This document shows, in pieces, positions 48,816 to 49,923 of a stretch of DNA of 50,879 nt. The notes under the pieces were generated by a model. The model made no database searches. It was not told the DNA's origin and worked only from the letters and a program-made list of their open reading frames with translations. Position 1 is the stretch's first letter. Every line of letters begins with the position of its first letter. Source of the stretch: Candidatus Thorarchaeota archaeon (GTDB taxonomy: Archaea; Asgardarchaeota; Thorarchaeia; Thorarchaeales; Thorarchaeaceae); NCBI GenBank assembly GCA_016839605.1, contig JAEOTX010000051.1:1-50879 (forward strand), given 5' to 3'. Position numbers and translations under genes: made by a program.

Positions 48816-48853
48816 CATGTTCACCTCATTAACAGGTTTTCACAGTGATTATG

Positions 48854-49252
48854 TGTGAATGGCGCCTTTTTTGTGAACAGTTCTCATGAAAGAGCGTTCA
48901 AAAGACTTTAACTGATGAAAGAAGAGCCCATAGACCTTCTTGAGTGTGTGAATGAAGCCACCCCTTGGTTTCCAGTGGAACAGGACAAAAAGAGATATGA
49001 AATGCATATCAGTTCATTCACAAAGCACATATTCTAGTGAATAGGAGATGGTTTGTACAATACCCTTATTTTTGCTAAATAAGGGCTCATAACGCTTCTT
49101 TCCTCATCTATTGACCGTTTAAGCTGCCAGCACATCGGTATCAAGCCGGACGTGTTCTGAATACGTATAGGCGCATTATGTTGCCGTTATCCCTGTATTG
49201 CTAATTCACATACTCACACTTATTTGGTCGCAGTCTGTATTCCGTTGTGAAT
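48854..49252. repeat. Six dispersed TGTGAA(T/C) motifs in both orientations around the ORB
   Basis: Copies at 48854, 48872, 48947 and 49246 (+), and at 49016 and 49204 (-). Confidence 0.5.
48960..48981 (-). other. Origin recognition box (ORB), candidate replication origin element
   Basis: Minus strand GTTCCACTGGAAACCAAGGGGT = ORB dyad TTCCAnTGGAAA plus G-string; lies in the largest intergenic gap of the window. Confidence 0.7.
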
Positions 49253-49296
49253 ATTGTAGTGGGTATGAACGCCCGAAGAAGATTTTGGTGGAATAC

Positions 49297-49923
49297 TTGA
49301 AGTCTGAAGATCGTACGAACTATGTCTACCGATTCACGTACAACTCAGGACCAGGACTTCGAGAGGTATTCCAGTGCAAGTATGTCAAGCCTGATGAGGC
49401 ATTGACAAGATTCCAGAGAATTCTGTCCCTGACTGAAGAACCCTTTGACTTCAAGATTGTAGTGATTGATGAGTCCAAGAGAGAAGAATCCAGCTTTGAA
49501 GTTGAGGGTGGCAGTGTAAAGGAAATGATTGACAAGTTCAGGGTCTTTTTGGAAGCAAGTACAGGCATACTATTTGTGGCAGAACAAGAGGATGTCGAGG
49601 TCGAGTTTGAAGAGATTTCCTTTGAGTCAATGAGTAGCTTTGAAAAGATGCACATAGTGATCTATGCCTCATTCAAACATGGCAAGTTCTCCTCGCTTGA
49701 CGTTGCTGAGATATTTGAAGCCACGTTCAATGAAGACCTACCGAAGAGTACTGCATCTACCTATTTAGCTAGAATGTGGAAAGATGGTAAGGGGCATCTT
49801 GAGAGATATGGCAATCGTTCTGGCTACACATACAGACTCAAGACAGAGGTTTCCGAGGTCCAAAAAGAAACTGAAAGAGCCGAGGATATTCTTGCGTCAA
49901 TCCAGATGCATGTTGGCAAATAA
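49297..49923 (+). CDS. Hypothetical protein with C-terminal winged-helix DNA-binding domain
   Basis: FSSLDVAEIFEATFNEDLPKSTASTYLARM...LERYG...YTYRL; start moved to TTG 49297 after GGTGGA. Confidence 0.75.
   Translation: MKSEDRTNYVYRFTYNSGPGLREVFQCKYVKPDEALTRFQRILSLTEEPFDFKIVVIDESKREESSFEVEGGSVKEMIDKFRVFLEASTGILFVAEQEDVEVEFEEISFESMSSFEKMHIVIYASFKHGKFSSLDVAEIFEATFNEDLPKSTASTYLARMWKDGKGHLERYGNRSGYTYRLKTEVSEVQKETERAEDILASIQMHVGK

Follow-up and report, generated by a model that had tools for sequence, protein, structure and literature searches.

The window analysed here is a DNA stretch of 50,879 nt that makes up the entire contig C205 of a Thorarchaeota MAG (259 contigs, 3.08 Mb, 80% complete). 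Close to its right end, a non-coding gap carries one canonical origin recognition box (ORB3) among nine GTGAA half-sites and is followed by a gene for a winged-helix (wHTH) protein. The features of the locus are listed below, with the conservation of the boxes among 14 aligned relatives.

28707..29798, minus strand: second Orc1/Cdc6 paralogue (TIGR02928, 280 bits), 19.2 kb from ORB3
48816..49284: non-coding control region, 469 bp, between the nucleotidyltransferase-like gene (upstream) and the wHTH gene (downstream)
48820..48824, minus strand: GTGAA box a, kept in 12/14 relatives
48839..48843, minus strand: GTGAA box b, kept in 13/14 relatives; with box c it forms TTCACA-N9-TGTGAA
48855..48866, plus strand: GTGAA box c joined to GGCGCC, GTGAATGGCGCC; box kept in 14/14 and GGCGCC in 13/14 relatives
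48873..48877, plus strand: GTGAA box d, kept in 13/14 relatives
48948..48952, plus strand: GTGAA box e, abutting the G-string of ORB3, kept in 13/14 relatives
48960..48981, minus strand: ORB3, canonical origin recognition box with G-string, GTTCCACTGGAAACCAAGGGGT, an exact 22-mer
48982..49082: 100-bp tract of 31% GC, the most AT-rich of the gap, next to ORB3 on its core side; boxes f and g fall within it
49017..49021, minus strand: GTGAA box f, kept in 14/14 relatives
49037..49041, plus strand: GTGAA box g, previously described as a weak opposed ORB; core kept in 14/14 relatives, 20-mer in 1/14
49203..49222: near-invariant 20-mer with box h (ATTCACA), directly upstream of the TATA-like CTTATTTG
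49247..49251, plus strand: GTGAA box i, ~25 nt downstream of the TATA-like element, kept in 14/14 relatives
49285..49923, plus strand: wHTH protein gene, 212 aa, the first gene after the gap
49952..50879, minus strand: lysine-ketoglutarate reductase/saccharopine dehydrogenase gene, C-terminal part (Sacchrp_dh_C, E = 4.5e-77), running off the contig

The length of the gap follows from a revised start of the wHTH gene. The listed ORF begins at 49198 and is too long, as stops or frame changes occur before residue 28-34 in relatives. Moreover, 49198-49284 is not conserved as coding sequence, whereas the block at 49203-49222 is conserved at every position, and the start was therefore moved to the TTG or GTG codon at 49285/49288. 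On the other side of the gap, the gene at 47706-48815 (plus strand) encodes a 369-aa protein with a weak NTP_transf_2 match (E = 2.9e-4), and its place before the gap is kept in most of the family. An Rfam scan of 48700-49400 found no family at threshold; the best match was a snoRNA at 20.5 bits against a 41-bit cut-off, and there is thus no sign of an RNA gene in this segment. The sequencing runs found to contain the stretch were represented by Logan DNA contigs only (sediment and wetland metagenomes), with a word share of at most 0.39, and no RNA run was among those listed.

One relative from the same genus has a closed chromosome, CP070658.1 (2,579,137 bp). Conservation within the family was assessed in the 14 aligned relatives and in 28 sampled genomes of the Thorarchaeia family. 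Beyond the family, we used a profile search of 151 Asgard genomes, a set of 19 non-family Asgard genomes for ORB linkage, and a metagenome scan that yielded 38 loci of a distant subfamily, 32 of them with sufficient upstream sequence; this subfamily is called Nitrososphaerota-type on the strength of ESM-Atlas clusters. Among the 14 relatives, the gap consists of blocks of 5-22 nt that were kept while the intervening sequence diverged.

ORB3 combines a palindromic core with a G-string, and the canonical box of the initial annotation was recovered without change: it was the sole match in the window at ≤3 mismatches, and none of 100 shuffles gave a match. Its strand (minus) and position are fixed in all 28 family loci, 292-333 bp (up to 399 bp) upstream of the wHTH gene, and its counterpart in CP070658.1 lies at 1811732. 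No inverted partner for ORB3 was found within the gap, which holds one ORB. A weaker, opposed ORB look-alike had been described near 49032; the sequence is present, but since only its GTGAA core is conserved we regard it as a GTGAA box and not an ORB. Two dyads had also been described, GATATG-N5-CATATC and CCCTTATTT-N5-AAATAAGGG. Both are present as written, but their right arms were found in 0 of 14 relatives, and we take them to be lineage-specific or chance occurrences. The GC content of the AT-rich segment beside ORB3 is below the 1st percentile of 100-bp stretches of the window, and the origin gap on contig C182 (see below) is more extreme, at 22-27% GC. The least stable 60-mer of the ORB3 gap falls within the top 0.1% of the window.

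Exact copies of TGTGAA(T/C) number six within 48854-49252, as originally counted, vs. 32 across the whole 50.9 kb, and under each of four motif definitions no denser (T)GTGAA(T/C) cluster was found anywhere in the 3.08-Mb assembly. The nine GTGAA half-sites (four reverse and five forward, at spacings of 16-42 bp and more) are each kept in 12-14 of the 14 relatives while the flanking sequence diverged, and 8-12 such sites are present at every family locus (28/28). Box e forms a composite with ORB3, ORB-N7-TTCAC, whose offset is exactly 7 nt in 39 of 39 distinct family ORB3 contexts. The 12-mer GTGAATGGCGCC was found at 27 of 28 family loci, and GGCGCC between boxes occurs in other Asgard families as well. 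With a mean identity of 99%, the 20-mer at 49203..49222 is exact in 11/14 relatives and at 20/28 family loci, and its arrangement, TTCACA followed by a TATA-like element, is common to other Asgard families. This 20-mer is likely a core-promoter operator, its promoter role and placement being predicted ones.

The gene that follows the gap was said to encode a wHTH protein, and the predicted structure bears this out. The AlphaFold model (pLDDT 79.6) consists of two β-β-α units (residues 13-93), a disordered linker, a winged helix (118-185) and a C-terminal helix (190-210). Residues 114-212 matched winged helices of the Fur/PadR/MarR/MecI type by Foldseek and VIA-align (Z 8.4-9.8); the Foldseek matches had a probability of 1.00 yet E ≥ 1.3e-3. 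Across the wHTH family, the recognition-helix residues S-T-Y-L-x-R are nearly invariant. Searches of Pfam and NCBIfam gave no family above threshold (Penicillinase_R, FUR and CopY were sub-threshold), and neither a PDB sequence match nor a match to a Rep family was found. The CDT1 Pfam family did not match at E ≤ 1, and the C-terminal winged helix of Cdt1 reached only E ~1e-2 with Foldseek, ranked under many MarR and PadR matches; the winged helices of Cdc6 and Cdt1 are generic structural matches only. For the N-terminal domain (13-93), no clear structural relative was found, the best VIA-align match (Z 6.6) being a de novo designed protein, with ERH and p19 as weak matches. Internal duplication of the two β-β-α units was considered and rejected, as the hhalign result was not significant (E = 0.025, probability 2%).

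A winged-helix gene adjoining a repeat cluster could also mean that the gap is a separate satellite origin, with the wHTH protein as its own initiator and the TGTGAA boxes as iterons, in the manner of WhiP/oriC3 or a plasmid Rep-iteron unit. The 31% GC tract at the core side of ORB3 and the unstable 60-mer would suit such an origin. We consider it improbable, however, given that ORB3 lacks an inverted partner, that the boxes face both ways and are unevenly spaced, and that the protein has a single generic winged helix whose similarity to Cdt1/WhiP or Rep is not above noise. Furthermore, the gene sits within a classical cdc6-linked origin locus in most lineages, and the module is chromosomal and vertically conserved rather than mobile.

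The proposal that the gap itself is oriC was not supported, and the gap is probably not the origin proper. In a genome-wide ORB scan, the three best ORBs of the MAG were ORB3 and an inverted pair on contig C182, the only other strong locus. The members of this pair lie at 21879-21900 (minus strand) and 22021-22042 (plus strand). They have outward G-strings, conserved inner motifs and 120 bp of spacer DNA (31% GC) between them, and the surrounding gap of ~790 bp also holds a 60-mer at 22% GC. C182 ends in a 3′-open ORF that is the 5′, N-terminal part of the lysine-ketoglutarate reductase/saccharopine dehydrogenase gene running off the window, and the ends of C205 and C182 are collinear on three uninterrupted relatives, with ~501 bp unassembled between them. 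The pair therefore lies beyond the right end of the window, ~4.05 kb from ORB3. In CP070658.1, one molecule carries both the pair (1807472 and 1807615) and ORB3, at a distance of 4.1 kb; the three-ORB arrangement is contiguous there and in more than 12 other relatives, and in the family the pair is found 3.7-4.2 kb downstream. Hence the ORB of the window is the outlying third box of a three-ORB locus, and two conserved ORB sites a few kb apart span genes as in a Thermococcales-type locus. With a core of the form ORB(-)-AT-rich spacer-ORB(+) on C182 and a lone ORB in the gap, unwinding most likely starts at the C182 pair rather than in the gap.

Other conserved elements surround the pair. Three palindromes, GGAACA(C/T)GTGTTCC, bracket it at 7825-7840, 8056-8070 and 8370-8385 of the C182 extract and are conserved in the family. 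Directly beside the ORB pair, Thorarchaeia and at least four other Asgard families have a gene of 95-98 aa (YVYDV...RR..F.KELFGYKYKW). It occupies ~8075-8360 (minus strand) of the C182 extract, 7626-7919 of locus L165, 6352-6648 of L166, 6190-6477 of L168 and 6000-6290 of L170, and had no Pfam match.

GC skew, which had been suggested as a check of the origin, gave a divided answer on CP070658.1, whose sequence was rebuilt from 129 stretches with 399 masked 100-N runs. The global maximum of the detrended cumulative curve, at 1,804,628, is 3 kb away from the ORB pair; the minimum is at 1,336,683. The polarity is the reverse of that expected from bacteria, and the curve parallels gene orientation (coding strand skew +0.077); after correction for orientation, no switch was seen at 1.81 Mb and the peak lay near 1.66 Mb. 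Thus, the raw maximum looked supportive but is explained by gene orientation. Within the window, skew is negative over 1-14 kb and positive over 25-51 kb, and probably follows the gene strand. The last genes on the window side are oriented towards the origin, not away from it, which counts against an origin.

Two further sites emerged on the chromosome. At ~1.337-1.362 Mb of CP070658.1, cumulative GC skew and cumulative gene orientation both reach their global minimum and genes diverge; no Orc1/Cdc6 gene or ORB was found near this region. A fourth near-canonical ORB is present at 3842-3863 of contig C195 of the MAG and at 1698182-1698201 of CP070658.1 (TCCAGTGGAAACCAAGGGGC). It lies in a short gap with an AT-rich tract and has, 130 bp upstream, the palindrome GGAACACGTGTTCC that also occurs around the C182 origin. 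Since it is near the orientation-corrected skew peak (~1.66 Mb), this ORB may be a second origin or a regulatory site.

That the locus is uncoupled from cdc6, as the initial annotation had it, was corroborated on two counts. The paralogue in the window lies where it had been placed, about 19 kb away, and neither an ORB nor a mini-ORB was found beside it; it appears intact and keeps a distance of ~19-20 kb from ORB3 in both the MAG and CP070658.1. The primary orc1/cdc6 is on contig C52, and its orthologue in CP070658.1 is at 0.78 Mb, ~1.03 Mb from the origin locus. When compared with the origin-adjacent cdc6 of another Asgard genome (G026), the C52 paralogue showed 54% identity and the window paralogue 28%; by this measure, the former is the orthologue of the origin-adjacent Asgard cdc6 and the latter is not. 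Tandem ORB cores without a G-string (TCCAGTGGAAATCCAGTGGAAC) are located at 1390-1425 of the C52 extract, ~30-50 bp upstream of the primary orc1/cdc6 start, and are likely an autoregulatory site. This relocated cdc6 promoter of the MAG has no GTGAA box, implying that the boxes stay with the wHTH gene and the origin and not with cdc6.

Because TGTGAA resembles the AGTGGAA part of the ORB core, an Orc1 paralogue could read the boxes. They would then be degenerate mini-ORB-like sites, the intact-looking paralogue 19-20 kb off would be a suitable reader in both genomes, and the wHTH gene would be a mere neighbor. There is little chance of this, in our estimate: the boxes accompany the wHTH gene in Nitrososphaerota-type loci (a comparison that covered ORBs, boxes and the adjacent cdc6), and the wHTH recognition helix is nearly invariant over the same range as the boxes.

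Profile searches showed that the wHTH family reaches well beyond Thorarchaeia, with matches in 120 of 151 Asgard genomes. In 16 of the 19 other Asgard genomes, a homologue lies ≤1.7 kb from ORBs, as a rule with the ORB pair on one side and orc1/cdc6 on the other. Nine of these genomes, from eight other families, all have the homologue 0.04-1.7 kb from canonical ORBs; among the ten further genomes, ORBs were within 1.3 kb in seven and at 5.4 kb in two, and one had no ORB on the homologue's contig. The common Asgard map runs from the 95-98-aa gene through ORB(-)-spacer-ORB(+), sometimes a small HTH gene, the wHTH gene, an intergenic ORB with GTGAA boxes, and divergent orc1/cdc6 to PolD-DP1. The series of ORB pair, wHTH gene, ORB with boxes, cdc6 and PolD-DP1 is the ancestral layout. 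An orc1/cdc6 gene adjoins the origin in other Asgard and in Nitrososphaerota-type loci but not in the present family. In the Nitrososphaerota-type subfamily, 1-4 ORBs lie 100-460 bp upstream of the wHTH gene in 32 of 32 usable loci (38 found), and cdc6 is usually divergent or one gene off. An unbiased 6-mer test of the upstream regions ranked TGTGAA first (89 observed vs. 5.5 expected, 20/21 loci). Conservation of ORB and wHTH gene in relatives, which had been named as a check, was thus found throughout the family (28/28) and in most or all loci outside it (16/19 and 32/32, respectively). In one Nitrososphaerota-type contig (L221, 1399-2794), the ORBs are split in a manner comparable to Thorarchaeia: a pair adjoins cdc6, a second cluster lies upstream of the wHTH gene, and a CorA gene separates the two.

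The homologous region in other lineages is a divergent cdc6/wHTH promoter, and this bears on whether the gap is a transcriptional operator only. On that account, the wHTH protein is an autoregulated factor, Orc1/Cdc6 at ORB3 represses or activates the promoter, and proximity to the origin reflects descent alone. Two boxes do bracket the TATA-like element, the fold is that of a PadR/MarR/Fur-type regulator, and Orc1 paralogues are known to act as transcription regulators (Orc1-2, PMC9738581). However, ORB3 and seven of the nine boxes are 200-430 bp upstream of the promoter and are invariant in 28/28 family genomes even though cdc6 is gone from the locus, while the linkage to ORBs persists over two phyla and despite gene insertions. 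An operator without any part in the origin is accordingly a rather unlikely explanation, albeit the strongest competitor.

Taken as a whole, these observations favor the gap being the control and docking flank of the chromosome's ORB-type origin locus rather than its unwinding core, a reading to which we assign a probability of slightly below 0.6. The locus, which presumably acts as a replication origin, would comprise the C182 inverted ORB pair with its AT-rich spacer, ORB3 in its setting of nine (T)GTGAA(T/C) boxes, and the wHTH gene. Orc1/Cdc6 would occupy ORB3, as suggested by the identity of this site to the canonical box. The wHTH protein would occupy the GTGAA boxes, several of which are inverted pairs and two of which bracket its own TATA-like element; such binding is suggested by the conserved linkage and co-conservation of gene and boxes, and the association of wHTH gene, ORB and TGTGAA fits an origin-associated DNA-binding factor. 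Acting together, the two proteins could make wHTH expression depend on whether the initiator is bound, and could give the origin locus a second site occupied by initiator. Where the ancestral layout is kept, expression of the divergent orc1/cdc6 might be tied in too. In the Thorarchaeia family, the primary orc1/cdc6 has departed and a lysine-catabolism gene has been inserted between the ORB pair and the wHTH gene.

A wider proposal, which we offer tentatively as a possibility with the odds against it, is that the wHTH family has accompanied ORB origins with its TGTGAA boxes since before the Asgard/Nitrososphaerota split, as a second sequence-specific component of origin recognition or licensing. 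If so, origin identity in Thorarchaeia would rest on a trans-encoded initiator plus a cis-encoded wHTH factor; within this proposal, such dependence on both would follow from the wHTH gene having stayed at the origin after the departure of orc1/cdc6.

Asgard archaea are the closest known prokaryotic relatives of eukaryotes. A literature search found no paper on Asgard replication origins or on the wHTH gene-and-box module. The locus offers a precise and testable model of an Asgard origin: a pair of ORBs plus unwinding element, a further ORB at a distance, and a resident DNA-binding factor for which a box is defined. It also suggests that the initiator gene of an archaeal origin can move ~1 Mb while the origin itself stays in place with its accessory gene. 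Nitrososphaerota, ammonia-oxidizing archaea, have cultured strains and one mapped origin, and with the same module in Nitrososphaerota-type loci the factor is testable now by EMSA or ChIP. Marker frequency had served to map this origin (Pelve et al., 2013, as cited in PMC4010727).

Several characterized systems share parts of this arrangement. At the Sulfolobus origin oriC3, which is without ORB or mini-ORB (PMC4010727), WhiP is the associated winged-helix protein (Samson et al., 2013, PMC3607249). As there, a winged-helix gene adjoins an origin without an adjacent cdc6; unlike there, the locus has a canonical ORB, searches for sequence similarity to Cdt1/WhiP found none, and the model has a single winged helix with an unrelated N-terminal domain. 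PadR/MarR/Fur-type factors resemble the wHTH protein in having a winged helix with a C-terminal helix (114-212) and inverted half-sites around their own promoter. They differ in that no family HMM matched above threshold, an extra N-terminal β-β-α domain is present, and the position of the wHTH gene at replication origins is fixed across phyla. In contrast to a Rep-iteron replicon, the boxes are not regularly phased direct repeats and the neighboring gene had no Rep-family match.

In Pyrococcus, Cdc6 binds two ORB clusters in vivo across a 5-kb origin locus (Matsunaga et al., 2007, PMC1904270), and Thermococcales have ORB1/2 at oriC plus an ORB3 and mini-ORBs inside dp1 (PMC1904270). The present locus likewise has an inverted ORB pair at the probable unwinding site and a conserved ORB a few kb off, with genes between, so that the gap appears to parallel the second ORB cluster of Thermococcales. 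Here, however, the intervening genes are those for lysine-ketoglutarate reductase/saccharopine dehydrogenase and the wHTH protein, not cdc6, and the outlying ORB, a predicted binding site, is intergenic and amid TGTGAA boxes. At oriC1 of Sulfolobus/Saccharolobus, ORB3-DUE-ORB2 is bound by Orc1-1, and the ucm motif inside the DUE is bound by UBP (Dhanaraju et al., 2025, PMC12141716). UBP, which is 111 aa long, uses β-hairpins for binding; its gene is elsewhere, and it has hundreds of sites (PMC12141716). Both cases would combine an ORB-type origin with a second, non-initiator DNA-binding protein that has a short motif of its own, although here the gene for the candidate factor, a winged-helix protein, is at the origin itself, and the boxes of this factor are found outside the ORB pair. 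Of the published systems, the second ORB cluster of Thermococcales and the ucm/UBP system of Sulfolobus come closest.
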